A stretch of 64,000 bases of DNA from assembly GCA_002297365.1 (NCBI GenBank), contig DBKT01000013.1:1601-65600 (forward strand). Reading direction: 5' to 3'. The DNA is from Bacillales bacterium UBA743 (GTDB taxonomy: Bacteria; Bacillota_I; Bacilli_A; RFN20; CAG-826). Positions 31,734-56,365 of the stretch are shown piece by piece. A program made the position numbers and the translations under genes. The notes below the pieces were generated by a model, which did no database searches, had not been told where the DNA came from, and saw nothing but the letters and a program-made list of their open reading frames with translations. Each line of letters starts with the position of its first letter. The first letter of the stretch is position 1.

Positions 31734-32547
31734 ATTATCGTTTCCTTCCACTAATAAAACATGGATAGTTTAACGCGAATAAAGCGTTATTGCACCTTTT
31801 ATAGAAGAGAGAATGTTACCTAATATAAAAGGATAATCGTATGTAGACGGATAAAAGCCGCACGAAACAAAAGTCAAACAGTTCATGCGATCCTTTGTGT
31901 TTCAAAACCTTTGATTCTGAATTATGAAGTCTATCTCCAAATCACCAAATTCGTTTTAAATACGTTTCTCTTTCGTATAAATGTTTCATGAATCAAATTC
32001 CTATCTGAAAGCAACCGTGAAAATCCATAGTTAATAGATATTTTTTAAGTTTTCTTGTTTTTTCTCTATTAACTTACACTTTTAGGAAACATTCTCTTCA
32101 CCATCTAGAGATAAGATAAACTTGACCGTATGATGTGTGATAAACCTTTTACGCCGTTGAAAATCAACGATTCGATTGATGAAGTTTACGAGTAATAAGC
32201 GCTTTGCATTTTATTCCCGTTAAAGAACTTAATGAGATAATTTTCTTCGCCTTTCAATCATCATTAAGTAAAACATTGCATATAGGCCTCTTCTCAACAT
32301 AGAAATGGCTTTTAAACCATCATTAAATCTAAATGTTCTGCCGTTTGACACTCTCCAAGACGCATCAAATCGGCATGTAAAAAAAGAAATACCCTACTAA
32401 TTTAAAGTTAAAGTGGATTTAGAAAAGTTTCAAAACGTCGGATTTAAATCCTTCATTTCGTCGGTTTGTTTTGTTTCAAAACGTCGGTTTCATTGTTTAC
32501 TTCTTTGGTTTTTGCTGATTAAATAGAATCAAGCGAAGGAGCGAAGC

Positions 32548-33837
32548 ATGCCTTTTGAATACAGAAAACGTTTAGCAGAGAACATATTGAATGAAAAATT
32601 AAATTCTTCCGGATGTGTTTTAGTCACCGGTCCGAAATTCTGTGGAAAGACTACACTTTGTCAAAGATTTGCCAAATCAAGCATTTCTTTAAAAAACGGA
32701 AATACGATTGCTTTAGCAAATTCCGATCCAAAAGGAATTTTACAAGGAGAATATCCTCGTCTTATCGACGAATGGCAGAAAGCCCCGGAACTATGGAATG
32801 AAATAAAAGCCGACTTAGATGAAGAGTATCAGTTTGGCAAATACATCATTACCGGAAGCACTACTCCCATTGATCCGTCTAAAATTCAACACTCTGGGGC
32901 TGGACGCATTTCTACAATGAACTTGAAGCCGTTCTCTCTTTATGAATCTGGAGAATCGTCCGGATTGATCTCTTTATCTGAATTGTTTCAAGCAAAAGAT
33001 GCAAGGGAAGACCTTAACTACGTATTAGACAACTCAATTGGCTTAAAAGATATCGCTTATATGCTTTGTAGAGGAGGCTGGCCAATCTCTCTTATGGCAA
33101 AGAGGGAATATGCCATAGCCACCACGGAAAACTACTATGAAGGACTTTTTAGAATAGAAAAAGAAAGTGATGATTTTGCTCTTTTTCTTAAGAACAAGGA
33201 CGTTTCGCTTCTTGTTCTCATTTTGAAGTCTTTTGCAAGAAACGTCTCCACTCAAGCAAAAAGATCCAGCATGAGAAAAGATATATTAGAGTCCAGCATC
33301 CGCGAAACGTTGGATGACGAGACCTTCTCTTCCTATGAAAGGACTCTAAAAGATTTGTTCATTATCTATGATATGCCGGCTTGGGATTTGAATCTTAGAT
33401 CGACCATCGCCATAAGAAGCACACCAACACATCACTTTGTCGACACTTCGATGGCTACATGTGCTTTAGGGATTGAGCCGTCTGATTTAATCAATGATCT
33501 CCACTCCTTTGGCTTTTTCTTTGAAGATTTGGCAGTCAGGGATCTTTCTATATATGCGGATTCTCTTCAAGCAAAATTAAAACATTATCGCGATAGCGCA
33601 GGTCGAGAAGTAGACGCCATTGTAGAACTAAGAAACGGGAACTATGCCGCGATTGAAATCAAAATCTATAGCGATAAAAACATAAAAGACGCATTCGCTT
33701 CTTTAAATAAATTTGAGAAAGCCTTAAAACAAGATGGGTTAAAGCTCCCTCAATTCAAGATGGTTCTCACTAGCCATGGCCCTTGTTACCGTAAAGATGG
33801 AATATATGTCGTACCGATCACAATGCTAAAAGATTAG
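32548..33837 (+). CDS. AAA_14/DUF4143-type ATP-binding protein
   Basis: A Walker A (GPKFCGKTT) is near the N-terminus in an approximately 430-aa protein. This is the architecture typical of the PF13173/PF13635 ATPase family. Confidence 0.7.
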   Translation: MPFEYRKRLAENILNEKLNSSGCVLVTGPKFCGKTTLCQRFAKSSISLKNGNTIALANSDPKGILQGEYPRLIDEWQKAPELWNEIKADLDEEYQFGKYIITGSTTPIDPSKIQHSGAGRISTMNLKPFSLYESGESSGLISLSELFQAKDAREDLNYVLDNSIGLKDIAYMLCRGGWPISLMAKREYAIATTENYYEGLFRIEKESDDFALFLKNKDVSLLVLILKSFARNVSTQAKRSSMRKDILESSIRETLDDETFSSYERTLKDLFIIYDMPAWDLNLRSTIAIRSTPTHHFVDTSMATCALGIEPSDLINDLHSFGFFFEDLAVRDLSIYADSLQAKLKHYRDSAGREVDAIVELRNGNYAAIEIKIYSDKNIKDAFASLNKFEKALKQDGLKLPQFKMVLTSHGPCYRKDGIYVVPITMLKD

Positions 33838-33851
33838 TAACGTTTCACCAT

Positions 33852-35135
33852 CTATAAACAAAACAACGCATAAAGTGGAATAGACTTAATGCCATTTTCG
33901 TAACCAAAATTTTTAGAAGACAACCGAATAGAATATTTTGGTGAGTATTTTTCAACGTAAACTCTTAAACTTTTAGCGCGAACATTGTCCGCAGATTTAA
34001 CTTCAAGAGGAATGGCAGAGTCATCTTTTCTTAGAACAAAATCCACCTCTGCCTTGCCATTAGATTCCCGATAGTTTAAGCGATAGCCACATGATACAAG
34101 TTGTTCTGCAACATAGTTTCCTGCCAAAAGGCCTCTTGCCTTATCGGATATTGCACTTTCGACAAGAATATCTTGAGGCATAATTCCAGATTTGAAGCAA
34201 AGAAGTCCAACGTCAGAATAATAAATCTTGAATGCATCTAGCTGTTCATACAAAGAAAGCGGCAATTTCCCTTCACTCACTTTAACGTTTTCCAAGACCG
34301 CATTTGCGGCCTTAAGCCATTGAAGGGACAGTTCATAGTCTTTCGCACGAGCGTTGCTTTTAATTGAGGCGTAAATGAACTTCGTGTTCTCTTTTGCCAA
34401 TTGAGATGAAAGAGTATTGAAAATGGCTATGCTTTTGATGGTTTCATTTGGCGAAGCATACTTGGCCATATCAGCAATATAAGAATCGGAAATATTGGCC
34501 TGCATCGAACGTACGGAATCAAAATCATTTGTGTCAAGAAAGTTTTCAATGACCGCTGGATAACCACCAATAACCAAATATTTTCCATAAAGATCCAATG
34601 CGAGTTGATGATAAACCTCGGGGAGAGGAGAAAAAGCAGCGTAGGATTCGCGTATTTTTTCTATTAATGCATCATTATTGTTCGCCAATAAGAACTCTTC
34701 AAAAGAAAGAGGAAACATCGTTAACATATTTACCTTTCCGACAGGGAAAGAGAAGTTTCCTCTGTCAATACTGAGACCTAAAAGGTTCCCAGCAGCGACG
34801 ATATGATATTCATTCGCTTCTTCGGCAAAATATTTCAAAGATGTCAAAGCTCTTTCGGATGCTTGTATCTCGTCAAAAATAATCAAAGTCTTGCCCGGCA
34901 ATATCGTTTGTTTTGTATAGGCTGAAATCTCTTGGATGATACGCCTAGGATTTAAATCGGGAGAAAAGATTTTAGTAAGTGTTCCTGCGTCCCCTTCAAA
35001 ATGTAAATAAACAACGTTTTCATAATACGTCTTGCCAAAATCTAATAACGTATATGTTTTACCGACTTGCCTTGCGCCCTTTAATAAAAGCGGTTTACGC
35101 TGTTGCGATTTTTTCCATTCTAGAAGCGAATTCAT
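33852..35135 (-). CDS. AAA_14/DUF4143-type ATP-binding protein. It is a paralog of the previous gene.
   Basis: Walker A (GARQVGKTY), Walker B (IFDEIQ) and the same length class. Confidence 0.7.
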   Translation of the reverse strand: MNSLLEWKKSQQRKPLLLKGARQVGKTYTLLDFGKTYYENVVYLHFEGDAGTLTKIFSPDLNPRRIIQEISAYTKQTILPGKTLIIFDEIQASERALTSLKYFAEEANEYHIVAAGNLLGLSIDRGNFSFPVGKVNMLTMFPLSFEEFLLANNNDALIEKIRESYAAFSPLPEVYHQLALDLYGKYLVIGGYPAVIENFLDTNDFDSVRSMQANISDSYIADMAKYASPNETIKSIAIFNTLSSQLAKENTKFIYASIKSNARAKDYELSLQWLKAANAVLENVKVSEGKLPLSLYEQLDAFKIYYSDVGLLCFKSGIMPQDILVESAISDKARGLLAGNYVAEQLVSCGYRLNYRESNGKAEVDFVLRKDDSAIPLEVKSADNVRAKSLRVYVEKYSPKYSIRLSSKNFGYENGIKSIPLYALFCL

Positions 35136-35151
35136 TATTAAACGTCTTATT

Positions 35152-35700
35152 GGACTGCTAATCTTTAAGTAGACAGTGCATTACAATTTTGCATGCAGAT
35201 TGCAATGCTCTGTAGACAAGGAGGTTACAAAAATGAAACTAACGAAAGAAGAAAGGCTCCCGGTCGGCAAGATGCTGCACGAAGGGAGCCTTTCCTACAA
35301 GGACTGCATGGAAAAATACGGCGTTTCCAGATCCGCATGCTCCAACTGGGTGAGGGAATACAGGCAAATCAACGGAATCCCCCCAAAAGCCCCCATGGGG
35401 GCTCGCGCCGGCATGGGCCAAAGCGATTACGGATCGATGACAAAGAGCCAGCTCCTCGTTGAGCTGATGCGCAAGGACATCGAGGTCGCGAGACTAAAAA
35501 AAGGTATGCGGTGAAAGGGGGTGGTCGAAAAAAGGAATTCGTTTCTATAAGCGGCTCGAGTACCAAGTGATAATGGAGCTTTCCGGAAAATGGCCGGTCG
35601 TAGCCCTCTGCAGGGTGGACATAGCAAAAGTATACAAATCAATCAAACATTTCTTATCCGCCATGGTCATCTTATAAATCGGCATTGAAACTCCGCGGTC
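35152..35700 (+). mobile_element. Truncated IS3-family element, comprising the left inverted repeat, orfA and only about 50 codons of orfB
   Basis: The IRL reads TGGACTGCTAATCTTTAAGTAGAC. OrfA is a HTH protein (MKLTKEERLP…) with a GGAGG RBS. A frame-shifted orfB start (…WPVVALCRV…) stops after about 55 codons. The segment is GC-rich relative to its surroundings. Confidence 0.7.
35233..35514 (+). CDS. IS3-family transposase OrfA (HTH)
   Basis: See the mobile-element entry above. Confidence 0.65.
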   Translation: MKLTKEERLPVGKMLHEGSLSYKDCMEKYGVSRSACSNWVREYRQINGIPPKAPMGARAGMGQSDYGSMTKSQLLVELMRKDIEVARLKKGMR

Positions 35701-35916
35701 TAAGTAATATCCACCACCTTTGCCGTGTTTCGTTTCAATGTTAAAAGAATAACGTTCGTCTGTTGAAACTTTATCCAATTCCCTTTTATATTCAAGAATA
35801 TTCCTTTCTTTAGTGCCCAATTCTTCAGCTAACTCTTTTATGGAATGAACCCTTCCGTCATTCAAACACCGTAGCATTTCAATGCATTTTGCTGCTTTTC
35901 CTTTTTCTTTTTCCAT
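35545..35916 (-). pseudogene. HTH-WYL-type regulator truncated by the IS3 insertion. Only the N-terminal HTH survives.
   Basis: The N-terminus MEKEKGKAAKCIEMLRCLNDG…ELAEELGTKERNILEYKREL is homologous to the two full-length WYL regulators in this island. The C-terminal approximately 20 residues are read from the IS remnant on the opposite strand. Confidence 0.5.
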
Positions 35917-35968
35917 AATAACACACTCCAAAATATACAAAATCAATAGGCTTTGGGTTAACTTGCTG

Positions 35969-36676
35969 TTAAATTTTCCTTAATCCTTTTTTCCAAAAAA
36001 AGCACGAGGATGGATGGGCGCTTGCAACAAGTCGAAGCCCCCTTCTAATCAAACACTCCGTAACCTTTCCGTTCAGATCATTTGGATTTTTCACATTTTG
36101 AAAACCGCCAGTGCACGAATTTATAATTAGTGAAGGCTTATATTTTACAATACGTTTCAAAAATTCCTTTTTCCCACCGCAAGCCCACACATCCGAAAAA
36201 ACTATATCTCTCGCTTTTTTATTGCCATTCAGCTTCAAATTGCTTGCATTGCTACATTGATACGATACGGCATTAACAAGAAGCAATCGATAAATTCCGT
36301 CTCTCAAATGAATTATTTTACTCGCGATAGCCATATTAAGAACGGGCAATAAGTATTGCTCCAAGTTTCTTCCTGTAGTGGACAAGGCTGGCCCAAGAGG
36401 GGTTGATCCATGATATTCATATTTATGAGGCGATTCCAAAACGATGCAAATCACAGGGCACATCATTCTCTTAAATGTGTCAGTTATTTCTTTTGGCCTT
36501 TTCTTTCCACCAAAATAAATGCACTCGTTTTTGCCAAAAACACAGATACCATTTCTTATCCGAATAATTGCAACGTATTCATCATTAACGGGTCTTGGAG
36601 GAAGACCAGTTCTCATGGTTTTGCAGTTTCCATAATTCCTTATACAGCTTTTTTGAAAGACTAGGCCGAGGTACAT
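35969..36676 (-). CDS. Hypothetical Cys-rich protein (235 aa)
   Basis: It has a GGAG RBS. It contains several Cys and His residues and has no assignable family. Confidence 0.4.
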   Translation of the reverse strand: MYLGLVFQKSCIRNYGNCKTMRTGLPPRPVNDEYVAIIRIRNGICVFGKNECIYFGGKKRPKEITDTFKRMMCPVICIVLESPHKYEYHGSTPLGPALSTTGRNLEQYLLPVLNMAIASKIIHLRDGIYRLLLVNAVSYQCSNASNLKLNGNKKARDIVFSDVWACGGKKEFLKRIVKYKPSLIINSCTGGFQNVKNPNDLNGKVTECLIRRGLRLVASAHPSSCFFWKKGLRKI

Positions 36677-37398
36677 ATACTTTCTCCTTTTTTATTATTT
36701 TCTCACAAGAATCGTTTTGTTTAAAAGCCAGTAAGAAACAGGATTATTTATTTTGATTTGTTAGTTATCAATTGATATGAAGCATTTGAGAAGCCCGGGG
36801 CATCCAATCTCGAACTTATTTTGTATCGGCCTTCTCATCCCTTCAACTTGATTCGGGGACTGAGGATCAACGTAATTCTCAGTGCATCATAATGTTCTTT
36901 GTTTCATCTCACGTCGCAGAGTAAGAGTCGAAATGAGCAAAAACTCAGCCTCCTTTAGATTTTTTCCTGATTGACCCTGTGCAATCTCTCGGTCTTCCGC
37001 TGTATGCGGAGTGATAAAAGCAACTTATTTTCACTTTTTGACAATGTGGTTTTTACAAATTTTGCATCGACCCTTGAAGAATTTCTCCTCTTCTTTCATT
37101 TTGTATGATGGGATTATCATTTTGAATATTTGCAAGTAGTACAGCAAGCGGTCAAACATCACGATCATAATGATGGAATTTAAAAGGGTGGCTACATACC
37201 TTTCATTTCTAAGATTTTTTGTAAAAATGGCTTATGCTAAATGCATGCTATTTTAAAATCTAAAAATCCTTCTTTTGTAGTTTAAAGGCTGTAGTCCTTA
37301 CCCCTTATGCGGTGGTTAGCCGCAAAGATGAAATTGCTCTAAACAATCCGTATTTTTGTAATACTTCTAAAAAATTCAAAGCGACACAGTCAATGTCA

Positions 37399-38379
37399 TT
37401 AGTTCCCTTTTCTTATTCCTTTTTCTATTTGATGCGAGTTTCCGAGAATTTCTAATGCGTTTTCTTTAATTGCTTCCTTCAGCCAATAAGGTTCAAGTAC
37501 TTTGCAATCTCTTCCAAAGCCAAGAATAAAAGAAACGATATTTTCTCTAAAATGCATGGTCACTTCAAATACTGTGCTTCCATCTGGCAAATCTTCAACA
37601 ATTTGTTCCTTCCCATAGCAATAGTCCTTAGCGCGAACAGCGGAACGACCATAAAGCTGAAATTTGATTCTATACCATTCATCAGTTTTAATTTTAGTCA
37701 AACCGTATTTATTAAAGAAATCTCTAGGGTTAAAGAACGTATCGTAAACAAACTTTCTACCCGTTGAGGCATAATTTGAAATTCTACACAATTTAAAATA
37801 GCGATAATCTTTTGCAAGCTCGCAATAACCAATTAAATACCAAGATCCGCCCCAGGAAAAAAGATACATGGGTTGAACGTTTCTTTCTCTTATGACATTA
37901 TCATTGGATAGAAAAGACATTCTGATTACCTCACGTTTTGAAATCGCTTCTTGAAAAAACAAATAACGTTTATTGATTTCTTCCTTGGATAAAGCTGAAG
38001 GAAAATGGTCAATAAAAACGAATTCTTCTGAATCGTTTGAATGAATTATCGAGGATAATATTTTTCCCATCGCAAGTTCATATTCTTTTTGATGTGGGAA
38101 TATATTCTGGGGGCGATTCATCTGATAGGCTTCCATTAAAGCATCTTTTTCCTTTTCCGTTAGAAGAATGCTTGGAAAAATGCTGGTATTTTCTAATTTA
38201 TATCCGCCATATCTACCCGGAATGGAGACAATGCTATATCCTGAATCTTCGATTTCCTTTTTGTATTCCAAAATATTTCTAGGATTTGTCTCGAGAAGAT
38301 TCGCTAATTCTGAAATTTTATAGATGTTTCCTGTATTTAATATTTGAAGCATTTTGATGCAAGACGAAGTTTTACTCAT
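37399..38379 (-). CDS. HTH-WYL domain transcriptional regulator (YafY/BrxR-like)
   Basis: An N-terminal HTH_11-like segment (CIKMLQILNTG…ISELANLLETNPRNILEYKKEIE) and a C-terminal WYL-type region (…FSWGGSWYLIGYCE…). Confidence 0.7.
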   Translation of the reverse strand: MSKTSSCIKMLQILNTGNIYKISELANLLETNPRNILEYKKEIEDSGYSIVSIPGRYGGYKLENTSIFPSILLTEKEKDALMEAYQMNRPQNIFPHQKEYELAMGKILSSIIHSNDSEEFVFIDHFPSALSKEEINKRYLFFQEAISKREVIRMSFLSNDNVIRERNVQPMYLFSWGGSWYLIGYCELAKDYRYFKLCRISNYASTGRKFVYDTFFNPRDFFNKYGLTKIKTDEWYRIKFQLYGRSAVRAKDYCYGKEQIVEDLPDGSTVFEVTMHFRENIVSFILGFGRDCKVLEPYWLKEAIKENALEILGNSHQIEKGIRKGN

Positions 38380-38390
38380 ATCCGTTTTCT

Positions 38391-38891
38391 CTATAGTTTT
38401 TCATTCCATCGTGCCTGTCCATTGGATTGATAAAACGTTATAAATAAATGTTCTATAGTTTCTTTATAATACCATGGCGTTACTTCAATTACCTTGTAAT
38501 AGATCTTTTTCTTGTTTTGTCGCTTTCCCAAATAATCATAAACATTCTTTATTTGCGAATTGGTGCTTGAGGGTTTCCCATATTTCTCCCCCTCAAAATT
38601 GTCGTTTTTGACTAAGTGCTGCGTTAATCTTAAATGGACATTATTAGCCGTACCAACATATAAAACGTTATTTTGTTCGTCTCCTATAAGATAAAGATAA
38701 GCGGTTGTGAGGTTTCCGGCATCTTCGTCTTTTTCAAAAGACAAAATTTCATCAAGGCAGTCCAAGGAATAGATGCCCGTTTTAGGATCAAAGGATGGAT
38801 TACCATATCTAAGTTCTATCCAAGGGGCCTTTCTAATTTTATTCTCATAATGTAGTCTTAGCAAAAATGAGATTAATTTCATGATTGTCAT
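38391..38891 (-). CDS. GIY-YIG nuclease-domain protein
   Basis: It has the canonical motif YLYLIGDEQNNVLYVGTANNVHLRLTQH. It lies immediately upstream of the WYL regulator, within 12 bp of it. The start codon is uncertain (alternatives at 38924 TTG and 38882). Confidence 0.65.
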   Translation of the reverse strand: MTIMKLISFLLRLHYENKIRKAPWIELRYGNPSFDPKTGIYSLDCLDEILSFEKDEDAGNLTTAYLYLIGDEQNNVLYVGTANNVHLRLTQHLVKNDNFEGEKYGKPSSTNSQIKNVYDYLGKRQNKKKIYYKVIEVTPWYYKETIEHLFITFYQSNGQARWNEKL

Positions 38892-39024
38892 CTTTTTTGA
38901 ATAATTATTATTGCAATATAGCAATCAAAGACAATAATACGCATATTAAGAAACGGGTGAAAGCGTTGAGTAAGATTTTTCTTATTTTCCATTATTTCAG
39001 CAAAACTACATTGCTTTTAATGAA

Positions 39025-39225
39025 CTAGCTCAATAAGGTAAGGCATCCGAAAACAATCAATGTAGTTCCAAGCATAAAACTAAGCGCCATGAAGATGGCC
39101 CAACGAATAGAAGCGGCCTTCGAAAAATTCCATCCCTTTGGATTTCTAGCGATTCTAATAATTCCAAGGCTCAATGCCGCTACACAGCCGACAGTTCCAA
39201 TGATAATTTCAATAATTCCTAACAT
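39025..39225 (-). CDS. Small 2-TM membrane protein (66 aa). It is a divergent paralog of the two upstream small proteins.
   Basis: TM-(IRIARNPKGWNF)-TM topology. Confidence 0.45.
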   Translation of the reverse strand: MLGIIEIIIGTVGCVAALSLGIIRIARNPKGWNFSKAASIRWAIFMALSFMLGTTLIVFGCLTLLS

Positions 39226-39246
39226 ATTTATATCCTTTCTTTTTCT

Positions 39247-39423
39247 TCAGAATGCTGCAGCAATCAGTATGACCCCACCGACAAATCCAATGATGGAACA
39301 AACAGCAAACATGATTCCGTAGAAACCTCTGAGGTTGTCTGGGGTTCTAATAATGCAAACGACAGTTGCTGCAACTGCAAGCACGCAAAGAACAATACCG
39401 ATAATTAACATAATTAAGTTCAT
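39247..39423 (-). CDS. Small 2-TM membrane protein (58 aa)
   Basis: MNLIMLIIGIVLCVLAVAATVVCIIRTPDNLRGFYGIMFAVCSIIGFVGGVILIAAAF. It shares the loop TPDNLRGFYGIMF with the next ORF. Confidence 0.55.
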   Translation of the reverse strand: MNLIMLIIGIVLCVLAVAATVVCIIRTPDNLRGFYGIMFAVCSIIGFVGGVILIAAAF

Positions 39424-39525
39424 AAATTTTCTCCTTTTTAGCTTTTATAAGCCTTTTGAATATTTGGCAAATGTTATTTGAGAAGGCAACATTTTCGCCA
39501 GTATTTGTTGTCCTTTCGATTTCCT

Positions 39526-39702: not shown

Positions 39703-39713
39703 AATTTTCTCCT

Positions 39714-47040: not shown

Positions 47041-47097
47041 ATAATTCTCCTTTCTGAATGGATGACTTATTTTGTCATGGCTATTACTATAAAAATT

Positions 47098-47132
47098 ATT
47101 CCTACATCATTTATGTATGGATTAAATAAAAG
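47098..47132 (-). promoter_or_regulatory. Shared dyad motif, copy B (CTACATcatttATGTAT)
   Basis: See finding 3. Confidence 0.55.
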
Positions 47133-47141
47133 ATGAATTTA

Positions 47142-47936: not shown

Positions 47937-47939
47937 AAG

Positions 47940-48671
47940 TTACCACTCCCAATCGTCTACTTCAGCAATCGCTTGTTGCACTAAACCCTTTATCTCTTCC
48001 GTTTGAGATGGTTTCTTTCCTTTTACTGATGAAGAACTCGATTTCACCTTGGAGGCTGTTATCACTATGATTTTGATGATTCGATTGAGCAAACGTGCGT
48101 CATAACATTCAATTACATCTCCGTTTCCCGAAACAAAATCGTTCAAGCAACGAATGGTTTTCTCATCATTTGATCCAACCGATATACCATATTTCAAAGC
48201 AATTTTGAACCATGGAAGTTTTTGCAAAGAAGACAATTCTGTTTTGATAGCTCCGTTACTAGGATGGCCATCGCTCATCAAGAGAATGATGGGAGCCAAT
48301 CCGCCAAAATCTGGCATGATTCCGCCTTGAGATTCTTTTTTTAAGATTTCGGAAAGAAACTTATAGGCAAGATGGATATTGCTTCGCCCTGCAGCCTTAA
48401 TGCCTTGAAAGCCAAATTTTTTCACTGGCAAGCATTTCTCGTCTTTATAAAACGAAGCTTGGGTGGAATATGTAATCAAGGTAATATAGAAATCAACATT
48501 GGTGTTTTCATCTTCCATCTTCGAAAGATAATCTTTAATTTCAAAAATGGCATCATTTACTTGTTCAATACGGGTACCCCGCATGCTTGAAGAAGTGTCC
48601 ACAAGCAAAATGATATTAAGTCTTTGCTTGGCGATGTTTCCTACAAAGACGTTACCAGTCTGTGTCGACAT
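47940..48671 (-). CDS. vWA-domain protein (TerY-like)
   Basis: MIDAS motif (LLVDTSSSM) and a …LMSDGHP… segment. The C-terminus is acidic (DDWEW). Confidence 0.7.
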   Translation of the reverse strand: MSTQTGNVFVGNIAKQRLNIILLVDTSSSMRGTRIEQVNDAIFEIKDYLSKMEDENTNVDFYITLITYSTQASFYKDEKCLPVKKFGFQGIKAAGRSNIHLAYKFLSEILKKESQGGIMPDFGGLAPIILLMSDGHPSNGAIKTELSSLQKLPWFKIALKYGISVGSNDEKTIRCLNDFVSGNGDVIECYDARLLNRIIKIIVITASKVKSSSSSVKGKKPSQTEEIKGLVQQAIAEVDDWEW

Positions 48672-49416
48672 CGTTCACTTCCTCTAAGTTATTGGCAATC
48701 TCTTTCTGAGCAACATCGTTATTATTAACAAGTCCGTTGCCATTTGAAGAGTTATCTCCGCTATTTGCATCGTTATAAGTTTTACTAGAGGAATTTGATT
48801 TAACTTTAGAGGCCGTTACCGCAATAACTTTGATTACTTTTCTTAAGGCTTCCGCTGTGTAAACCTTTAAAACGGTTTCACGGTTTCCCGTGAATTTAAC
48901 CAAGACGTCCATAGCTTCGTCGGTGTCAACGCCGATAGCAAGAGCGTATTTCAAGGCAACCTTGAACCAACCTTTTTTCTTTAATTCAGCAAGGCAATCT
49001 TCCCAATCAAAAGAAGTTGGATTTCCATCAGTCATTAAGATGATAATTGGGGCAACTCCGCCAATATCAGGCATTTGTCCACCATTACTCTTTTTCCTAA
49101 GCCATTTAGCTAATTCGTCATATGCAGCAGAAAGATTGGTTGCACCATCTATCGAAAGATCGTTCCATTTAAAATCCTCCACATTCTTTGGCTCAGAATA
49201 AATCCATTTAGCAGTATCGCTAAAAGCTAATGCAGAAATTTTAATCGTAGCATCGCTAGTATCCTCTTGAATCTCAGGCATGATACTCACAACGTCTCTG
49301 ATTGCATTATTGACTGCGCCAATCCTCTCCCCCTCCATGGAAGCGGAATTGTCAATCACAAACAGCAAGTTCAATTCTTGCCTTGCAACTCCATCACCTA
49401 AAACTACTTCAGACAT
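48652..49416 (-). CDS. vWA-domain protein (TerY-like). It is a paralog of the previous gene.
   Basis: MIDAS motif (FVIDNSASM) and …LMTDGNP…. The C-terminus is acidic (DVDTDW). Confidence 0.7.
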   Translation of the reverse strand: MSEVVLGDGVARQELNLLFVIDNSASMEGERIGAVNNAIRDVVSIMPEIQEDTSDATIKISALAFSDTAKWIYSEPKNVEDFKWNDLSIDGATNLSAAYDELAKWLRKKSNGGQMPDIGGVAPIIILMTDGNPTSFDWEDCLAELKKKGWFKVALKYALAIGVDTDEAMDVLVKFTGNRETVLKVYTAEALRKVIKVIAVTASKVKSNSSSKTYNDANSGDNSSNGNGLVNNNDVAQKEIANNLEEVNDVDTDW

Positions 49417-50705
49417 AATATTTCTCCCTTAACATTGTCATCAAATTCGATTTGTAGATTTTGAATCAATGGGATGACGCCATTTTTATCAATTTCTTTC
49501 GCAATTCCATTTTTATCCGTAATCTTGACATTCTTATCTAAAAAAAGACGTATCCCTAATAGCCCAGGGTTCTTCTTATTACGGATTACCCTTCCTTTTA
49601 TGGTTTGATAGTCCGAAGAATATTTGTCTAAATGACAAGCATAGATTTCTTTTCCTACATCTAAGACAATCTTGTTCTTTCCGAGTTCTAATACACACAC
49701 GTTCCCCTTACTTTTATGACAAGCAGGGCATTTTTCATAGGACTGTTTCTCTTCAAATCCGTAAATATATTGATAACCGCATTGTGGGCAAGTGATTAAT
49801 TCATCACGGTATTTTGTTAAAAGCCTTAACCACTCTAACTCAGTTGTTCTTTCGTTTTCCCTGTCTAACAATCCATTCACAAAAGTTCTATGGAAAGCCT
49901 CTTTGATATAAAGTGGCAAATACGCCCAACGCTTTAATACAGAAGTGTGATATCCACGGATCGGCCTGTTTGATTTATCCGTCTTGTGATAAATGAAAAT
50001 CGGATTGCTTCCATACATCTCATATTCGGCTTTTTCATCAATAAAGTCATAATCCTTCAACCTTTCCCCCTCAAAAGGATTCCCAAGGCAAAGGGCCATG
50101 AATAAGATAATCCCTAACGAGAAACGATCGGAATGAATGTCTGGCAAGCATTTCCCAGTCACAATTTCTGGGGCCATATATCTCATTTTTCCTAAGACGC
50201 CAAGATTTTTCTTATCTGCGGTCACGTTATCATTGTCACAAATGAGCAAGTCACCTGTCTTTGGATTCAAAAAGAAACTTCCATCATTTAGATCTTGATA
50301 AGAAAAACCTCTTTCGTGTAGAGCTTTGAAATCGGTGCATAAAGAGATACACCACTTCAGCAATAACGTTTGAGTATCAAAAGGATTCTTGCCATTTAAA
50401 TAGGAGATAAAGGAAACATATTCTTTTGGACGCAAATCCATAATGTATCCACTCGTTCCCTTATCATCTTGATAGATTTCTAATGGCCAAAGGAAATCGT
50501 CTGTAGGCCTTCCTTTTTCAATGTTGTGTTTGAGGTTAAAGAGGAAATCAGTGCTCATCTGGCTCTTATAAATTTTTAAAGCGAATTTATTTTTGCCATC
50601 GGATATCAAATAGACTTCACCCTGTCCCCCTTCTCCAAGTAAATCGACGACTTGATAAGTGTGGCCATCTTTAACGCTTATTTCATCGCCTTTTTTAAAA
50701 CGCAT
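49404..50705 (-). CDS. Ser/Thr protein kinase with a C-terminal zinc ribbon
   Basis: Gly-rich loop (LGEGGQGEVY), the invariant Lys (ALKIY), a catalytic YQDLNDGSFF segment, a DFG-equivalent region, and an APE motif (YMAPE). The C-terminus carries CPQCGY…CPACH. Confidence 0.8.
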   Translation of the reverse strand: MRFKKGDEISVKDGHTYQVVDLLGEGGQGEVYLISDGKNKFALKIYKSQMSTDFLFNLKHNIEKGRPTDDFLWPLEIYQDDKGTSGYIMDLRPKEYVSFISYLNGKNPFDTQTLLLKWCISLCTDFKALHERGFSYQDLNDGSFFLNPKTGDLLICDNDNVTADKKNLGVLGKMRYMAPEIVTGKCLPDIHSDRFSLGIILFMALCLGNPFEGERLKDYDFIDEKAEYEMYGSNPIFIYHKTDKSNRPIRGYHTSVLKRWAYLPLYIKEAFHRTFVNGLLDRENERTTELEWLRLLTKYRDELITCPQCGYQYIYGFEEKQSYEKCPACHKSKGNVCVLELGKNKIVLDVGKEIYACHLDKYSSDYQTIKGRVIRNKKNPGLLGIRLFLDKNVKITDKNGIAKEIDKNGVIPLIQNLQIEFDDNVKGEILCLK

Positions 50706-50747
50706 TTGTTAGCACCTCCTTTTAATGTGTTTTCAAGTATATGAAGG

Positions 50748-50775
50748 ATCCCTACATCATTTATGTGACGATAGG
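50748..50775 (-). promoter_or_regulatory. Shared dyad motif, copy C (CTACATcatttATGTGA)
   Basis: See finding 3. Confidence 0.5.
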
Positions 50776-51160
50776 ATTTTTTTAAAAAATAATTGCGACG
50801 TCCTTGAATATTGCTTTGTCCGTATAGCAAAAGGGTTGAAGAAAAGCAAAAATAGTCTTTTAGTTATGTCTCCTTATTTCTTAAAATTAATCGTTTTTCT
50901 TGCGCCTCCATTTAAATAAATGCACATATATTGCCAGAACAACCTTTTTTCCTTAAAAACAAACCCATTTTATCCCCCCCCGGAAAAGTCAATCTTTTTG
51001 ATATGAAGCATATCAATTTATTTGTCCCAAAATCACGTTATTCAAATGAAACACCCCCAAAACGCCAACGAAACTAATTAGGGGATTTTTTTGAAGAGCC
51101 CTTCCGTTCATCTAAAGCTTTTCTGGTGAATTCAACGTTTTGGCTAAATATTATGTTGAA

Positions 51161-51247
51161 AAAAGTATGAACGAGTATGAAAATATTATAAAAGTATGAA
51201 CGAGTATGAAAGGGTTTTAAAAGTATGAACGAGTATGAAAATAAAAA
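51161..51247 (+). repeat. 3 x 29-bp direct repeats (AAAAGTATGAACGAGTATGAAA + 7 nt). The third copy contains the real start codon of the downstream ATPase.
   Basis: The repeats are exact over 22 nt. Each carries ATGAACGAGTATGAA. The first two ATGs run into a TGA after 10 codons. Confidence 0.85.
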
Positions 51248-52295
51248 GAGCAATCCATTTACGCTATCTTTTGGGAAAAAGCCTTTTGAATATATCGGTA
51301 GGGAAGACAGCAAGAAAGAGCTGATTGGTCAAATTAGTTCCGATCCCGCCACTTCAAATTGTTATGTTATTACTGGCGTGAGAGGCTCAGGAAAAACGGT
51401 AATGCTTACGGCCGTCTCCAAATATTTTGAAACTGATAAAGACTGGATTGTAATCGATCTTAACCCAGAAGATGATTTACGTGAAGGCTTAGCCGCAAAG
51501 CTTTATACCGAAGCAAAAATTAAGCATCTCTTCATGGAAAAAAGTTTTAGCGTCTCCTTTCATGGTGTTTCCTTCAGCCTTTCTGGAAAAAATCCAATAT
51601 ACAACATTGATGATTTGCTAGAAAAAATGTTGGAAGAAATCAAAAGACAAGGGAAGAAGGTGTTGGTCACAATCGATGAAGCAACAAATAACGCCCACAT
51701 GAAGCAATTCGCCTTATCATTTCAATCTTTGATTCGAAAGGAGATTCCGATCGTCTTACTTGTAACGAGTTTGTACGAAAACATTTCCTCATTGGAAAAC
51801 GAGAAAAATATGACATTTCTTATTCGATCTCCAAAAATTTTTCTTTCTCCTCTTAGCATTCAAGCCATCACAAATTCTTATGAATCTAAGCTTGGATTGA
51901 AGTATGAAGAAGCATTAAAATGCGCAAAATTAACAAAAGGTTATGCGTTTGCTTTCCAGTTACTAGGATATCTTATGTTCAATAAAAATAAGAAAGAGGC
52001 GGATAAAGAAGTCTTATCCTCTTACGATCAATATTTAGAAGAATTTGCCTATGCAAAAATATGGTCCACCTTATCTGAGGTCGAAAGAAAGATTGTTATC
52101 TCCCTCCAGACAAATACATCAATTGGTGTATCCACAATATTGGAAAGAACGAACATGAAGAAAGAATATTTCTCCCGTTATAGGGATCGCCTCATCAAAA
52201 AAGGCATATTCCTTTCTCCAGCGAGAGGAAAGCTAATGTTCGCTCTTCCACGTTTTAAGGAATTCATCGATGTTGAGACGGCTTACGATTTCTAA
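51225..52295 (+). CDS. ATP-binding protein of the PF01637 (archaeal-type ATPase) family, with a C-terminal wHTH-like region
   Basis: …FEYIGREDSKKEL…CYVITGVRGSGKTVML… and Walker B (VTIDEA). Confidence 0.6.
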   Translation: MNEYENKKSNPFTLSFGKKPFEYIGREDSKKELIGQISSDPATSNCYVITGVRGSGKTVMLTAVSKYFETDKDWIVIDLNPEDDLREGLAAKLYTEAKIKHLFMEKSFSVSFHGVSFSLSGKNPIYNIDDLLEKMLEEIKRQGKKVLVTIDEATNNAHMKQFALSFQSLIRKEIPIVLLVTSLYENISSLENEKNMTFLIRSPKIFLSPLSIQAITNSYESKLGLKYEEALKCAKLTKGYAFAFQLLGYLMFNKNKKEADKEVLSSYDQYLEEFAYAKIWSTLSEVERKIVISLQTNTSIGVSTILERTNMKKEYFSRYRDRLIKKGIFLSPARGKLMFALPRFKEFIDVETAYDF

Positions 52296-52441
52296 CTTTT
52301 GAAAATTTAAAAAGAGCGGTTCTCCATCCCTAAACGCTTCAAACAGAGAAAGAAAATAAGAATTGAGACATAACGTTTTTATTGAAGGGCAATATAAGGC
52401 TTCCTTTAATCTATAAAAACATTCGATGTGGAGCCTATTTT

Positions 52442-52590
52442 TGACTGCCAACCCTTAAGTAGACGCGCATTACAATCTGCACGCAAAATTGTAATGCTTT
52501 GTGGACAGGGAGGCTACAAAGATGGAACTCACGAAAGAAGAAAGGCTCCCGGTCGGCAGGATGCTGCACGTTGAGAACCTTTCCTTGTTC
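52442..52590 (+). mobile_element. Second IS3-family left-end remnant, comprising the IRL and the first approximately 25 codons of orfA
   Basis: TGACTGCCAACCCTTAAGTAGAC…GGAGGctacaaagATGGAACTCACGAAAGAAGAAAGGCTCCCGGTCGGCAGGATGCTGCAC is about 80% identical to 35152-35290. It has the same orientation as the first copy. Confidence 0.6.
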
Positions 52591-52681: not shown

Positions 52682-54043
52682 TCAACAGGACACATTCTTT
52701 TTTCCTAAAGCAAAAACAAGGTAATATGGCAATGTCAATATTTCATTTTCATACCCAATGTTATAATCACCGAATTTAATCAGCCGAGTAATACCATAAT
52801 GTTCAGGATGCGCCATGACAGTTTTGCTTGATTTGGTATTTCCTGTTTTTGCTTTAGCTTCAATCAACGTAGATACACCATGATATGCAATCACGAAGTC
52901 GATTTGAAGGCCACTTTCTTTTGCGAAATAAAACGTTTGAATGCCCGCCTTATATAAAGAGTCTGCAACCGCCGCTTCAAAAACGTCGCCTTTATTCATC
53001 CCCATTTTTTCCTGCATTAATGAATTCAATGTATCAAAGCCACATAAAGTAATCATCGTCCCGATATCCGAATAATAAAGTTTGAAATCAGAATTGATTT
53101 TTCTTATCGCTAGAGGCAAAGATGGGTTTTCCACATTGTTCACCTTAAAAACAACGTTTGCGTTCAAAAGATAATCAACCGCATCATTTCTCTGATAGCT
53201 GTTCCCGTTTATTCTTGAAAGCACAAACCTCTTATTGTCCGTCAAAGAAAAAGCTAGTGTCAGATCGAAAGCTTTCTGAATTCTAGATATTTCAGTGACT
53301 GTATATAGGGGGTTTCCACCATAATCAACACGTTTAACCGGGTCTCCTTTGACATCAAAAATAAGACTTTCGTTTTTCTTATAAACAACTCCGAAGTTAT
53401 TCGAAGTCAAATATAGACTTACAGTTTCTGGATAGCCTCCAACACACATATATTCTTTGAAAAGAGTTTTCATTTTTTCATGAATCGCGGAAGGAATCGG
53501 CTTTTTTTCTTTGAGATAATTCAATAATTCACTCACTTGTTCTTCTGAATAGCCAGATGCCCAAAGGAATTCTTCAAAATCCATTGTTTTCATGCAAAAA
53601 ACATCTTCAGCACCATTTGGTAAGGGTGTATTTGCGTTTCTTTGCTGCTTTAAATTCAAACCGATATAAGAGCCACTGGCAATAACTTCAAATCTGCCAT
53701 CTTCTTTAAAACTTTTTAACGCTAGGCGAGAGCGCGGGCAATCTTGAATTTCATCCAAAAGGAAAATGGTCTTTCCCGGCTCATAATGGAAATCTTGAAA
53801 TTGAAAGGAAAGTTTTTTGATAATTTCATTTACGTCTAAAGAGCCATCAAAAGCATTCATAGCTTCTGGATTCGTCCAAAAATTAATCGAATTAACATAT
53901 TGAAAATGAGCATTAGCGAACTCTTGAATGCTCCTGGATTTTCCACATTGTCTTATCCCGTAAACCAGGGCAGGCGAATGTCCTTGTGTCTGGTACCAAT
54001 CAAGAAGAACTGTGTCAATTTTCCTTTTTAAATACTTACTCAT
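52682..54043 (-). CDS. AAA_14/DUF4143-type ATP-binding protein (third paralog)
   Basis: Walker A (GIRQCGKSR) and Walker B (FLLDEIQ). Confidence 0.7.
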   Translation of the reverse strand: MSKYLKRKIDTVLLDWYQTQGHSPALVYGIRQCGKSRSIQEFANAHFQYVNSINFWTNPEAMNAFDGSLDVNEIIKKLSFQFQDFHYEPGKTIFLLDEIQDCPRSRLALKSFKEDGRFEVIASGSYIGLNLKQQRNANTPLPNGAEDVFCMKTMDFEEFLWASGYSEEQVSELLNYLKEKKPIPSAIHEKMKTLFKEYMCVGGYPETVSLYLTSNNFGVVYKKNESLIFDVKGDPVKRVDYGGNPLYTVTEISRIQKAFDLTLAFSLTDNKRFVLSRINGNSYQRNDAVDYLLNANVVFKVNNVENPSLPLAIRKINSDFKLYYSDIGTMITLCGFDTLNSLMQEKMGMNKGDVFEAAVADSLYKAGIQTFYFAKESGLQIDFVIAYHGVSTLIEAKAKTGNTKSSKTVMAHPEHYGITRLIKFGDYNIGYENEILTLPYYLVFALGKKNVSC

Positions 54044-54095: not shown

Positions 54096-54154
54096 CCGCA
54101 CCAAAAAAGGGGGCGAGTTTTATATTGTTCCGCACCAAAAAAGGGGTGAGTTTT
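54096..54154. repeat. Two 25-26-bp direct repeats (CCGCACCAAAAAAGGGGGCGAGTTTT and CCGCACCAAAAAAGGGGTGAGTTTT) at the right edge of the island
   Basis: Read directly from the sequence. They lie about 50-110 nt upstream of the AAA_14 gene. Confidence 0.8.
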
Positions 54155-54335
54155 GCTAAAACTTGCACCAATTTTAATTACTCTAAAATTTAAAATAGGC
54201 TTTCTATCGATGTTTTATATTTCCTTACTACGATGAATTTAATTTTTTATTGGAACAGTCAATTAAAAATTGAAAGGTCTATTTAACTGGTCAATATTCA
54301 TTCTTCTGTATTTAAAGAAGATTTTTTAAGTAAAG

Positions 54336-54376
54336 AAAAACGCAAGGTTTCCCAAGAAGGTTGGCCTTGCGTTTTA
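54336..54376 (-). terminator. Rho-independent terminator after the ABC exporter operon
   Basis: AAACGCAAGG-N17-CCTTGCGTTT followed by a T run on the minus strand. Confidence 0.5.
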
Positions 54377-54379
54377 AAA

Positions 54380-56365
54380 TTAATCTTGTTGTTGGATGGC
54401 ATTGCCAGTATAGAGTTGGTAATACTTCCCTTTTTGCGCAAGAAGGTCATCATGCGAACCACGTTCAATAATATGCCCGTGATCAAGAACCATAATGACA
54501 TCTGAATTCTTAATCGTGGATAGACGATGAGCGATAACGAATACCGTTCTGCCTTCCATAATGGCATCCATGCCTTTGGTGACCATTGCTTCCGTACGAG
54601 AGTCGATGGAAGAGGTTGCTTCATCAAGAATGAGGACAGGAGGGTTTGCTATGGCCGCGCGGGCAATGGCAAGAAGCTGTCTTTGTCCTTGAGAAAGGGA
54701 TGTCCCGCCATTCTTTAAAACAGTGTTATATCCATCCGGTAATTGATTAATAAAGGTGTCTGCATTGGCTAATTTAGCAGCTGCATACACTTCTTCATCC
54801 GTTGCATCAAGTTTGCCATAACGGATATTCTCCATAACGGTCCCTGTAAATAATTTTGTATCTTGGAAGACCATTCCTAATGAACGACGCAAGTCCGCTT
54901 TCTTAATCTTATTGATGTTGATGTCATCATAACGAATCTTGCCATCCGCGATATCATAGAAACGATTCAAAAGATTGGTAATCGTTGTCTTGCCTGCGCC
55001 CGTAGGTCCAACGAAGGCAACCTTCTGTCCTGGCTCGGCATAGACGGTGATATCGTGAAGAACGATCTTATCGGGAGTATAGCCAAAATCAACATGGTTC
55101 ACGTTAATTTTGCCTTTTAGCCAGGTATAGGTTGTTTCTGATCCATCCGTATGAGGATGTTTCCAAGCCCATTTGCCCGTTCTTTCCTTTACTTCAATTG
55201 GATTGCCGTTTGCGTCTTCTTTTGCATTGACGAGTTCGACATACCCTTCATCAACTTCCGCAGGTTCATCAATGATGGCAAAGATACGAGAGGCACCAGC
55301 TAACGCCATAGTAACGGTGTTGAGTTGTTGGGCCATTTGTCCGATAGGTTGAACAAAGCTCTTCGAATAAAGAAGGAAGGAAATAATGATACCAATGGAA
55401 TAAGTGTGAGCAAAAGGAGGGAGCAAGGTGTAACCTTGAACGCTATTGATGACAAAAAGCCCACCGAGCAATGCAATAATGGCGTATTGAAGGTTTCCTA
55501 ATTGATTCACAGTTGGCATCAGTGTGTTTGCATAACGGTTAGCTTTCACGGATTCTTCATATAAGGCATCATTTACCTTCGTGAATCCTTCGATGTTCCT
55601 TTCTTCGTAGTTAAAGACCTTGACTACTTTTTGCCCTGAGACCATTTCTTCAACGTAACCGTTGGTTCTGCCCAGCTGGATTTGTTGCTGAACGAAGTGC
55701 CTTCCGGAATGGGAGGCAAAGAATTTCGTCAACATGAACATCACCAAGGCGAAAAGAACGACAACGAACATCAAATAAAGGTCGGTCATGATCATGATAA
55801 CAAGACAGGCGACCATAGCCATAAGGCTAGATAGCATCATTGGGATAGAACGGGCAAGCATCTCACGGAGAGAATCAACGTCGTTCGTGTATACCGACAT
55901 AATGTCGCCATGAGTATGCTTATCAAAATAAGAGACAGGCAAATCCTGCATATGGGCAAACATCTCATCACGGATTTTCTTTTGCAATCCTTGAGCGATG
56001 TATGCCATAAAAAAGTTGTATGAATATGACGCCAAAACACCCAAGGCAAAAACACCAACCATCACCCCAACCATCTCAAAGAAATGAAGATTGAAAACCG
56101 TGATTTCTTTGGTCATGATTTCATAGGCGCTGCCGACGCTTCCAAGAGGGTTTTTCAACGCAAATTGGTCCAAAGCAGGTTGGATGAATTGGTCAACAAG
56201 GATATTGCCGACGAAATAAGAGTTGGCAACGGACGCAAAAGAAACGATAAGCGTGGATAATATCACCAAAATGAAATACCCTGGGTAATATTTCCAGATC
56301 ATTTTGAAAAGACGGGCAAACGCCCCAGCTGTCTCTTCCTTGGTTGGTCTTTTATTCATGGACAT
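54380..56365 (-). CDS. ABC transporter ATP-binding/permease protein (type I exporter half-transporter)
   Basis: A six-TM domain, then an NBD with Walker A (GPTGAGKTT), the signature (LSQGQRQLLAIARA) and Walker B (ILDEATS). A GGAGGAGG RBS precedes MSMNKR. Confidence 0.85.
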   Translation of the reverse strand: MSMNKRPTKEETAGAFARLFKMIWKYYPGYFILVILSTLIVSFASVANSYFVGNILVDQFIQPALDQFALKNPLGSVGSAYEIMTKEITVFNLHFFEMVGVMVGVFALGVLASYSYNFFMAYIAQGLQKKIRDEMFAHMQDLPVSYFDKHTHGDIMSVYTNDVDSLREMLARSIPMMLSSLMAMVACLVIMIMTDLYLMFVVVLFALVMFMLTKFFASHSGRHFVQQQIQLGRTNGYVEEMVSGQKVVKVFNYEERNIEGFTKVNDALYEESVKANRYANTLMPTVNQLGNLQYAIIALLGGLFVINSVQGYTLLPPFAHTYSIGIIISFLLYSKSFVQPIGQMAQQLNTVTMALAGASRIFAIIDEPAEVDEGYVELVNAKEDANGNPIEVKERTGKWAWKHPHTDGSETTYTWLKGKINVNHVDFGYTPDKIVLHDITVYAEPGQKVAFVGPTGAGKTTITNLLNRFYDIADGKIRYDDININKIKKADLRRSLGMVFQDTKLFTGTVMENIRYGKLDATDEEVYAAAKLANADTFINQLPDGYNTVLKNGGTSLSQGQRQLLAIARAAIANPPVLILDEATSSIDSRTEAMVTKGMDAIMEGRTVFVIAHRLSTIKNSDVIMVLDHGHIIERGSHDDLLAQKGKYYQLYTGNAIQQQD

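Follow-up and report, generated by a model that had tools for sequence, protein, structure and literature searches.

A rare TerY-P-linked gene cluster, classed as a candidate conflict system, in a strain-variable island of an uncultured gut Bacilli lineage

A block of 22.6 kb separates lysS from the genes of an ABC exporter in the 64,000-nt stretch of Bacillales bacterium UBA743 analysed here (contig DBKT01000013.1; hereafter the window). Variable islands between core genes are commonplace and the category itself is already known; the question raised by this locus is whether its genes form one system, and of what kind such a system might be. An initial annotation of the sequence had called the block an accessory island and had named it as the place where an undescribed system is most likely to sit. 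At the level of comparative genomics both statements held. The region is an accessory, strain-variable block, and its centre (37.4-50.8 kb, ~13 kb) is occupied by a rare, conserved cluster of 17 genes with its own putative operator, which we class, judging from its sequence, as a new variant of a TerY-P-linked conflict system. The host belongs to an uncultured human-gut Bacilli lineage known from metagenome-assembled genomes (MAGs) alone, and its best match is MAG UMGS237 (LysS 99% identical).

The core cluster and its putative operator

The 17 genes of the core are arranged in three co-oriented operons, P1 to P3. All 17 open reading frames (ORFs) are intact in the window, and their catalytic motifs are preserved where readable. 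The genes are listed below in the order of transcription, with coordinates that refer to the whole window; L-numbers (L001, L002 and so on) denote the loci or contigs used for comparison, and TM stands for transmembrane.

Operon P1
49404-50705, minus strand: Ser/Thr kinase (STK) with a C-terminal CxxC...CxxC zinc ribbon and a tail domain of ~90 aa (Pfam Pkinase, 3.8e-14)
47940-48671 and 48652-49416, minus strand: two TerY-like vWA proteins (Pfam VWA, VWA_2; 35% mutual identity)
47142-47936, minus strand: PP2C phosphatase (Pfam PP2C_2, 4.3e-26)
Operon P2
46438-47040, minus strand: u200, first gene of the operon, always directly upstream of u380 with a 1-nt gap or a 4-nt overlap
45360-46436, minus strand: u380, two-domain protein of 358-380 aa with an N-terminal alpha/beta and a C-terminal HEPN-like domain
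44496-45344, minus strand: u282, multi-pass membrane protein by its hydrophobic segments, with a basic N-terminal tail
43721-44509, minus strand: u262, no family match of its own
42145-43701, minus strand: WYL-FtsKγ, 518 aa, HTH-WYL-WCX with two FtsK_gamma winged-helix domains (Pfam)
41642-42148, minus strand: LemA-like protein (Pfam LemA, 9.2e-5, below the cut-off; TM segment at residues 3-27)
41143-41658, minus strand: u171, matching a DUF4097 (Toastrack) protein of L089 over the N-terminal domain of that protein
Operon P3
39714-41039, minus strand: AAA-M41, FtsH-like AAA+/M41 zinc protease without a TM segment (Pfam AAA and Peptidase_M41)
39526-39702 (58 aa), 39247-39423 (58 aa) and 39025-39225 (66 aa, tm66), minus strand: three tandem small two-TM proteins
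38391-38891, minus strand: small GIY-YIG nuclease-like protein (Pfam GIY-YIG, 4.5e-6)
37399-38379, minus strand: WYL326, WYL+WCX regulator of 326 aa, last gene of the operon (Pfam)

BLAST mapping recovered the same gene order in three further lineages (L091/L097/L100; L096/L099; and the distant L089/L093/L101/L102), which vary in having one or two vWA genes and either separate LemA-like and u171 genes or a u171-Toastrack fusion. In the most distant lineage with the full order, u380 is 46% identical and is encoded on a 520-kb contig of another taxon. The protein is very rare: a search of 5.8 billion protein clusters gave just 10 homologues at E <= 0.001, and none was present in 72,556 plasmid and 50,697 phage records. 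Five of the six u380 lineages adjoin vWA, PP2C and STK genes. The core is thus one conserved gene cluster. It was found to be undescribed in Pfam, PADLOC, NCBIfam, PHROGs and the literature searched.

A very close relative of the window (L091, L097 and L100; distal ABC-exporter gene, ABCb, 95.5% identical) carries the cluster at the same site with proteins that are 30-88% identical. This low identity, set against that of the exporter, indicates from sequence comparison either rapid divergence or replacement of alleles. At the other end of the range, the most divergent u200-u380 lineage with a vWA-vWA-PP2C-STK set (L094, 11669-16523; 32% identical) has a type III CRISPR-Cas locus as its immediate neighbour. 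This neighbour encodes a Cas10 palm, RAMPs and Csx19; a proteasome-like (PF00227) gene lies upstream, as does a gene for a 368-aa protein that resembles a fusion of u200 with a HEPN-like domain.

The genes of operon P1 are contiguous or overlapping (47142-50705). Both vWA proteins contain a DxSxS MIDAS motif (DNSAS and DTSSS), and the zinc ribbon of the kinase (CPQC...CPAC, about residues 305-330; weak Cys_rich_CPCC match) belongs to a protein that is 70-83% identical across alleles. As a zinc-ribbon kinase, a vWA protein and a PP2C phosphatase fit the published definition (PMC11090510), we assign STK-vWA-vWA-PP2C to the TerY-P triads.

The partners of the triad are conserved to different degrees. 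Orthologues of WYL-FtsKγ occur in every extended cluster, the LemA-like protein is 82-87% identical in L091 and L096, WYL326 has orthologues beside the cluster in L089, L091 and L097 (38-50% identity) and tm66 is kept in L089 and L096. The most divergent component is u282 (27-45% identity). The GIY-YIG gene has no counterpart in L089, L091 or L096 and is specific to the window allele. Searches of NCBIfam, PHROGs and Pfam at relaxed thresholds gave nothing for u171, u200, u262, u282 or the nearby u235; a weak FapA solenoid match of the L089 orthologue of u262 (0.0021) allows the guess of a beta-solenoid fold. Two proteins encoded downstream of the cluster, of 820 aa in L091 and 858 aa in L089, are homologous neither to each other nor to anything in the window.

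The C-terminal domain of u380 was predicted to form a four-helix up-down bundle, as is characteristic of the HEPN fold, and contains the invariant motif RNNVHLSKKQ, in which R312-N-N-V-H316 reads as Rx3H. The N-terminal domain is covered by no Pfam family. An exhaustive profile search returned 312 relatives, more than 100 of which are this domain as a stand-alone protein; it also occurs in proteins of 900-1800 aa, an example from the P0094 group combining it with a cold-shock domain and an ATPase_2/nSTAND1 NTPase. The domain is new and may be a general module of conflict systems. For u200, the AlphaFold2 (AF2) model was all-beta and unreliable (pLDDT 44).

AAA-M41 has intact Walker A, Walker B and HEAGH motifs, and neither a hydrophobic or TM segment nor an FtsH_ext domain was found in it; the FtsH model TIGR01241 scored 248 bits against a cut-off of 600. 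Its clade is rare: 15 clusters scored 405-968 bits, followed by housekeeping FtsH at 199 bits. By these sequence criteria the protein belongs to a distinct clade of membrane-free FtsH-like proteases and is not FtsH proper. Members of the clade also occur outside the cluster, in defence-like neighbourhoods; in L103 and L106, u380 or AAA-M41 is found among AAA_14/DUF4143, KAP NTPase and methylase genes. A DUF3990 gene with a small partner gene adjoins AAA-M41 in L106 (8586-11338) and the TerY-P cluster in L091 (3906-5418) and L097, and this pair may be a further mobile module of such islands.

The three operons are preceded by copies of one 17-nt element, TACATAAAT(A/G)ATGTAGG, which contains the palindrome TACAT-N5-ATGTA.

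50751-50767, minus strand: putative operator, promoter 1, CACATAAATGATGTAGG; adjoins the insertion point (50747) of an insertion sequence (IS) in deleted strains
47101-47117, minus strand: putative operator, promoter 2, TACATAAATGATGTAGG
41079-41095, minus strand: putative operator, promoter 3, TACATAAATAATGTAGG

The three copies compare with 0.01 expected in the window. They lie about 54-76 nt before the start codons of STK, u200 and AAA-M41, with a -10-like hexamer 11 nt downstream of the GG. Every other allele has the element at equivalent positions, which gives 17 sites in seven loci, surrounded by intergenic DNA that has diverged, and in the distant lineage it also precedes WYL genes. The strict palindrome occurred once in 1.3 Mb of unrelated background loci, and stand-alone AAA-M41 genes lacking WYL or TerY-P neighbours do not have it upstream. 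We read it as a phylogenetic footprint, namely one putative operator shared by three promoters. It is most likely bound by a WYL protein of the cluster, a pairing suggested by the conservation of the palindrome and its co-occurrence with WYL genes.

A composite, strain-variable island

The surroundings of the core are made up of the following features.

31752-32547: AT-rich ORF-free spacer between lysS and ATPase #1, 796 nt, 32.4% GC
32548-33837, plus strand: AAA_14/DUF4143 ATPase #1 (Pfam; PADLOC PDLC04790, PDC-S01, 1.2e-63)
33852-35135, minus strand: AAA_14/DUF4143 ATPase #2 (Pfam; PADLOC PDLC04786, PDC-S01, 1.4e-157)
35151-35615, plus strand: IS3-family remnant A, left end with the terminal inverted repeat TGGACTG and orfA HTH_28, truncated at 35615
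35545-35916, minus strand: stump of a WYL-family regulator, HTH only, 123-133 aa, cut by the IS (PADLOC WYL, 1.6e-5)
35969-36676, minus strand: u235, 235 aa, no match in Pfam, PADLOC, NCBIfam or PHROGs
51156-52305 (CDS 51225-52295), plus strand: STAND-like ATPase_2 (PF01637; Pfam, 34.0 bits against a cut-off of 33.2)
~52432-52585, plus strand: IS3-family remnant B, left end, 84-87% identical to remnant A
52682-54043, minus strand: AAA_14/DUF4143 ATPase #3 (PADLOC PDC-S01, 3.4e-102)
54096-54112 and 54130-54146, plus strand: two direct repeats, 17-nt exact core CCGCACCAAAAAAGGGG, spacing 34 nt, ~25 nt with flanks
54147-54384: last segment of the island on the right, reaching the stop codon of the ABC exporter; not present in sister species

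Nucleotide alignment to sister species placed the island edges at ~31738-31799 on the left and ~54385-54396 on the right: homology stops at 31737-31798 and resumes just past the stop codon of the ABC exporter. On the left side lysS ends at 31733/31751; exact matches to its protein were found from the ATG at 31733 and not from the GTG start. The right edge is at odds with the initial annotation, which had let the island end at the repeats near 54.1 kb. Since L091 retains these repeats without the adjacent ATPase gene (homology between the window and L091 stops at 54076), they mark an internal cassette junction and not the end of the island.

We examined 80 species-representative loci, and 62 GTDB species representatives had both ABCb and lysS. 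The order ftsH-dusB-(marR)-ABCa-ABCb-lysS was kept among these 62, and the gap between ABCb and lysS was shorter than 400 nt in 33 species and held fillers of 0.6-8.6 kb in the other 29, compared to 22.6 kb in the window. None of the core genes at 35.6-50.7 kb was present in the species representatives compared. In the sister species (LysS 93-95% identical) the site is either empty, as in L013, L014, L015, L017 and L018, or occupied by ATPase_2 alone, intact or decayed. A gene order shared by the whole genus would have made the block core rather than accessory; the island genes were not conserved across the genus, and among contigs with an identical LysS the island is itself polymorphic.

At least three forms exist among the contigs with 100% identical LysS. 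One is window-like (L001 and the window), a second lacks 34399-35150 and 35616-50746 (L003, L006), and in a third (L002, L008) the deletion reaches 54192, with its junction at 54193. The N-terminal part of ATPase #2 (34399-35135) is gone in all four deleted contigs, and each deletion junction begins at the IS3 left-end terminal TGGACTG, the IS end of remnant A being inverted in these strains and joined to 50747 or 54193. At 50747 the IS end is thus in the opposite orientation to the window copy, with 70 nt more of the IS kept. A common truncation point for remnant A of the window and L003 was therefore rejected, and the IS copies were truncated independently. The deletions are the result of independent IS insertions followed by IS-adjacent deletions.

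Other relatives show different contents at the site. L009, a close relative, has neither the core nor ATPase_2. In L010, another close relative (LysS 97%), genes for a 415-aa multi-TM protein and a 1152-aa collagen-like surface protein with GDKGD repeats (2113-6805) lie between the same two flanking ATPases, in the place of the TerY-P cluster. ATPase_2 is intact in the sister species L016 and L079 and decayed in L011, L012 and L014. As it is, whole or in remains, the sole occupant of the site in sister species, ATPase_2 is the oldest resident, and all other parts of the island were added to its left and right. The block is hence a nested composite with an older resident gene and not one insertion; its parts are the STAND-like ATPase, three AAA_14/DUF4143 cassettes, two IS3 left-end remnants and the ~13-kb core.

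Every element named in the initial description was recovered. The two IS3-family left ends in the same orientation are present as remnants A and B, the PF01637 ATPase as a borderline match and the three WYL-type regulators as WYL326, WYL-FtsKγ and the stump. This last shares 40% identity with the N-terminus of WYL326 and stops exactly at the IS junction 35615/35616. Pfam, NCBIfam and PHROGs revealed no ribosomal or metabolic genes in the island. The three AAA_14/DUF4143 ATPases had been called paralogous: the shared architecture stands (Pfam; full-length PADLOC PDC-S01 model matches for all three), whereas recent paralogy does not, ATPases #2 and #3 being 25% identical and #1 having no BLAST-level similarity to either. 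The ORF-free AT-rich tract of about 800 bp after lysS was likewise recovered; its GC content is in the 0.6th percentile of all 796-nt windows, and in no frame does it run for more than 55 codons without a stop. A comparison of GC content, which had also been proposed, gave 37.0% for the island and 40.6% and 42.4% for its flanks.

Candidate function and rival explanations

Compared to the known TerY-P triads (Anantharaman, Iyer & Aravind 2012; Gao et al. 2020 for a three-gene anti-phage system), the core has the same adjacent genes for a MIDAS vWA protein, PP2C and a zinc-ribbon kinase; it differs in the duplicated vWA and in that the triad is one of three putatively co-regulated operons of a 17-gene cluster. 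The TerY-P validated by Gao et al. has a kinase-OB fusion and works alone, whereas the window kinase carries a zinc ribbon. TerY-P has been described as a module that docks onto other conflict systems (PMC11090510). In CoCoNuT systems of types II and III-A (Bell et al., eLife 2024, PMC11090510) it is linked to a HEPN protein predicted to target RNA, and these systems resemble the cluster also in their many genes and accessory ATPases and possibly in a defence-island context. Unlike them, the cluster has no McrB-like GTPase, McrC, coiled-coil nuclease or UPF1-like helicase, its motif is Rx3H, and its partners are u200, membrane proteins, WYL-FtsKγ and AAA-M41.

Likenesses to other systems are partial. 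With the HEPN modules RnlA/LsoA, HEPN-MNT and the C-terminal domain of AbiA, u380 has no relationship at the sequence level; its motif is non-canonical, its N-terminal domain is novel and found also alone or fused to STAND NTPases, and u200 is predicted to be all-beta and not MNT. Like BrxR (BREX), CapW (CBASS), PafBC and DriD, an HTH-WYL-WCX protein is encoded within the system that it presumably controls, with a palindromic operator at the promoter; the cluster, however, encodes a pair of full WYL proteins, of which one is a fusion to two FtsK-gamma domains, and one putative operator serves three promoters. IetAS similarly pairs an AAA+ ATPase with protease activity, and PADLOC IetA models match the AAA part of AAA-M41 (6e-30), but the M41 zinc peptidase is fused to the ATPase as in FtsH and there is no IetS. 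Membership in IetAS was rejected, as NF042959 (IteA_antiphage) scored 86.9 bits against a cut-off of 510 and Pfam detected no S8 protease in the island. The ternary FtsH-vWA-MoxR systems (Kaur et al. 2020) were also rejected, since they need MoxR and a double-AAA FtsH-like protein without M41. The three flanking ATPases match PDC-S01 over their full length, although the copies are mutually very distant. We take PDC-S01 to be a phage-defence candidate that PADLOC defined by guilt by association, and we know of no experimental test of it.

Our leaning towards defence follows from the anti-phage and CoCoNuT precedents of TerY-P, the CRISPR- and defence-type neighbours and the divergent alleles in close relatives. 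TerY-P modules are reported to be protective against T7-like phages (Gao 2020, cited after PMC7699616), and the HEPN proteins of CoCoNuT systems come together with TerY-P (PMC11090510). By analogy, the cluster is rather likely to be an inducible conflict system of the anti-phage, abortive-infection type. The more specific proposal is tentative: 37.4-50.8 kb could encode an undescribed multi-operon immune system under one WYL-controlled operator. Its three arms, assigned with the same reserve, might be a TerY-P switch, a HEPN-like RNase with its obligate partner u200, and membrane proteins together with a soluble FtsH-like protease. In such a system, a cluster-encoded WYL regulator would sit on the operator and so cover the -35/spacer region at each of the three promoters and, in answer to a ligand produced by infection or DNA damage, the regulon would be switched on. 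The kinase/phosphatase pair would then toggle the vWA proteins, which would gate the effectors. The HEPN-like u380 would be the likeliest effector, an RNase working alongside u200, to which it is coupled, while the membrane proteins and the soluble FtsH-like protease could serve as accessory effectors or as a protein-turnover arm. The outcome would be abortive infection.

Several observations weigh against this proposal. The defence function is inferred by analogy, and relatives of WYL, LemA and Toastrack proteins are also found in DNA-damage and envelope-stress regulons. No core gene matched a validated defence hidden Markov model in PADLOC, which hit the kinase with mad6, PD-T4-6 and Stk2 models alone and gave no match for vWA, PP2C, u200, u380, u262 or u282. 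Over the island as a whole it reported three instances of PDC-S01, which is no more than a candidate, together with WYL models and partial matches to IetA and kinase models. For the defence-island character proposed initially, these amount to candidate families and generic domain matches, and no complete validated system was returned. The C-terminal domain of u380 is a probable, not an established, HEPN domain because its motif departs from the canonical Rx4-6H, with arginine and histidine kept at a spacing one residue short, and because neither Foldseek against the Protein Data Bank (PDB) nor a PDB profile search gave anything significant; in addition, the motif adjoins a loop predicted with low confidence. 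In L103, a u380 lineage of 36% identity, the triad is lacking and u200-u380 are flanked by two AAA_14/DUF4143 ATPases. A truncated kinase in L097 (6338-7291, 317 aa) and a fusion of vWA2 to PP2C in L098 (2820-4346, 508 aa) suggest ongoing decay or frameshift variation in L091-type triads. The site, finally, is a hypervariable general spot and not a dedicated defence hotspot, as its fillers in distant species are glyA, aminotransferase, glycosyltransferase or surface-protein genes.

The main rival would be a stress-response regulon for DNA damage and/or envelope stress, and not an immune system. Its WYL proteins would sense damage as PafBC and DriD do, the triad would be a phospho-switch for metal or stress, like those of tellurite-resistance loci, and the LemA/Toastrack-type proteins, the small TM proteins and the FtsH-like protease would repair or remodel the membrane. 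The WYL regulators, the LemA-like protein, the link of u171 to DUF4097 Toastrack and the GIY-YIG nuclease would suit such a regulon. TerY-P was, moreover, first tied to tellurite resistance and metal sensing (PMC11090510), and a vWA-STK-PP2C operon of Deinococcus is reported as a DNA-damage signalling module. We nevertheless consider this explanation unlikely because of the rarity of the cluster, its loss at strain level and the divergence of its alleles. One would not expect a housekeeping regulon to be lacking in sister species and in most conspecific strains, to be as rare as the 10 u380 homologues imply or to differ so strongly (30-60% identity) next to a 95.5% identical exporter, and the HEPN-fold protein with its CRISPR- and defence-type neighbours suits a conflict system better.

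Less likely again are two explanations that deny the cluster a common function or a history of its own. A recombination and IS-decay spot that has gathered unrelated, largely non-functional genes would account for the two IS remnants, the truncated WYL gene, the long spacers, the multiple deletion variants, the pseudogenised ATPase_2 of L011, L012 and L014, the defective triad genes of L097 and L098 and the unrelated cargo at the site in other species; it is improbable for the core, where all 17 ORFs are intact with preserved readable catalytic motifs, and where gene order and operator are kept across lineages down to 46% u380 identity. Delivery of the cargo in one step by a mobile element (composite transposon, integrative and conjugative element or prophage), with the IS ends as borders, seems more improbable still. 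Remnants A and B do bracket 35.6-52.4 kb in the same orientation, GC content is ~4 points below that of the flanks and FtsK-gamma domains are present, but the bracketed ATPase_2 resides in sister species without the rest, the remnants are 84-87% identical and were truncated independently, and the cluster occupies the same site in L091, L097 and L100 without a match to them. Pfam and PHROGs detected no integrase, relaxase or phage structural or packaging genes in the island, which also contains no tRNA, and u380 is missing from the plasmid and phage records mentioned above. The marks of an integrative island were likewise not seen, there being no integrase and no tRNA target, and the ~25-nt repeats being in tandem and on one side only.

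To our knowledge, the mode of action of TerY-P is still unknown, though anti-phage defence has been demonstrated for one version. With the cluster, TerY-P triads gain a concrete and very rare set of partners whose regulatory logic can be read. If the proposed conflict system is real, it would be the first link of a cytosolic AAA-M41 protease to phage defence. The cluster persists in an uncultured gut lineage and yet undergoes active IS-mediated deletion; natural strains with and without it are available in public metagenomes, which makes a correlation with phage load testable without cultivation.

Flanking cassettes and observations elsewhere in the window

ATPase #1 is truncated in L009 and L010, and ATPase #3 is present in L003, L006, L009 and L010 and missing from L091 and L002. 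Just upstream of ATPase #1 are two copies of GTTTCAAAACGTCGG, 45 nt apart (32427-32486), which parallel the repeats upstream of ATPase #3 (54096-54146) with a different sequence; the two pairs may be iterated operators of AAA_14/DUF4143 cassettes. The start of ATPase_2 is overlain by three head-to-tail 29-nt repeats (AAAAGTATGAACGAGTATGAAAAT..., 51161-51247) with a potential ATG start in each unit. Of the whole gene, the sister species L014 retains no more than a fragment of this repeat region. A homologue of u235 (36% identity) adjoins the cluster in L093.

Long non-coding spacers of 796, 722 and 519 nt occur in the island. An Rfam scan of 30-55 kb found no RNA family, so that these are not known riboswitches or non-coding RNAs, and a scan for promoter and terminator consensus sequences gave the same counts as shuffled sequence.

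Outside the island, a metallo-beta-lactamase-fold (MBL) gene at ~25190-26190 (L001 15545-16546) ends the ABC-transporter operon downstream of lysS and has a weak precomputed match to the Anti-Pycsar Apyc1 family; as it is conserved in all strains, it probably encodes a housekeeping MBL hydrolase. A tmRNA gene with the tag peptide DNSYIYANRAQRVSYAAA lies on the minus strand at 16445-16843. Such genes are common integration sites of islands, and the adjoining 14000-16000, where GC content (35-37%) is at its lowest for the window's left half, may form a second accessory patch.

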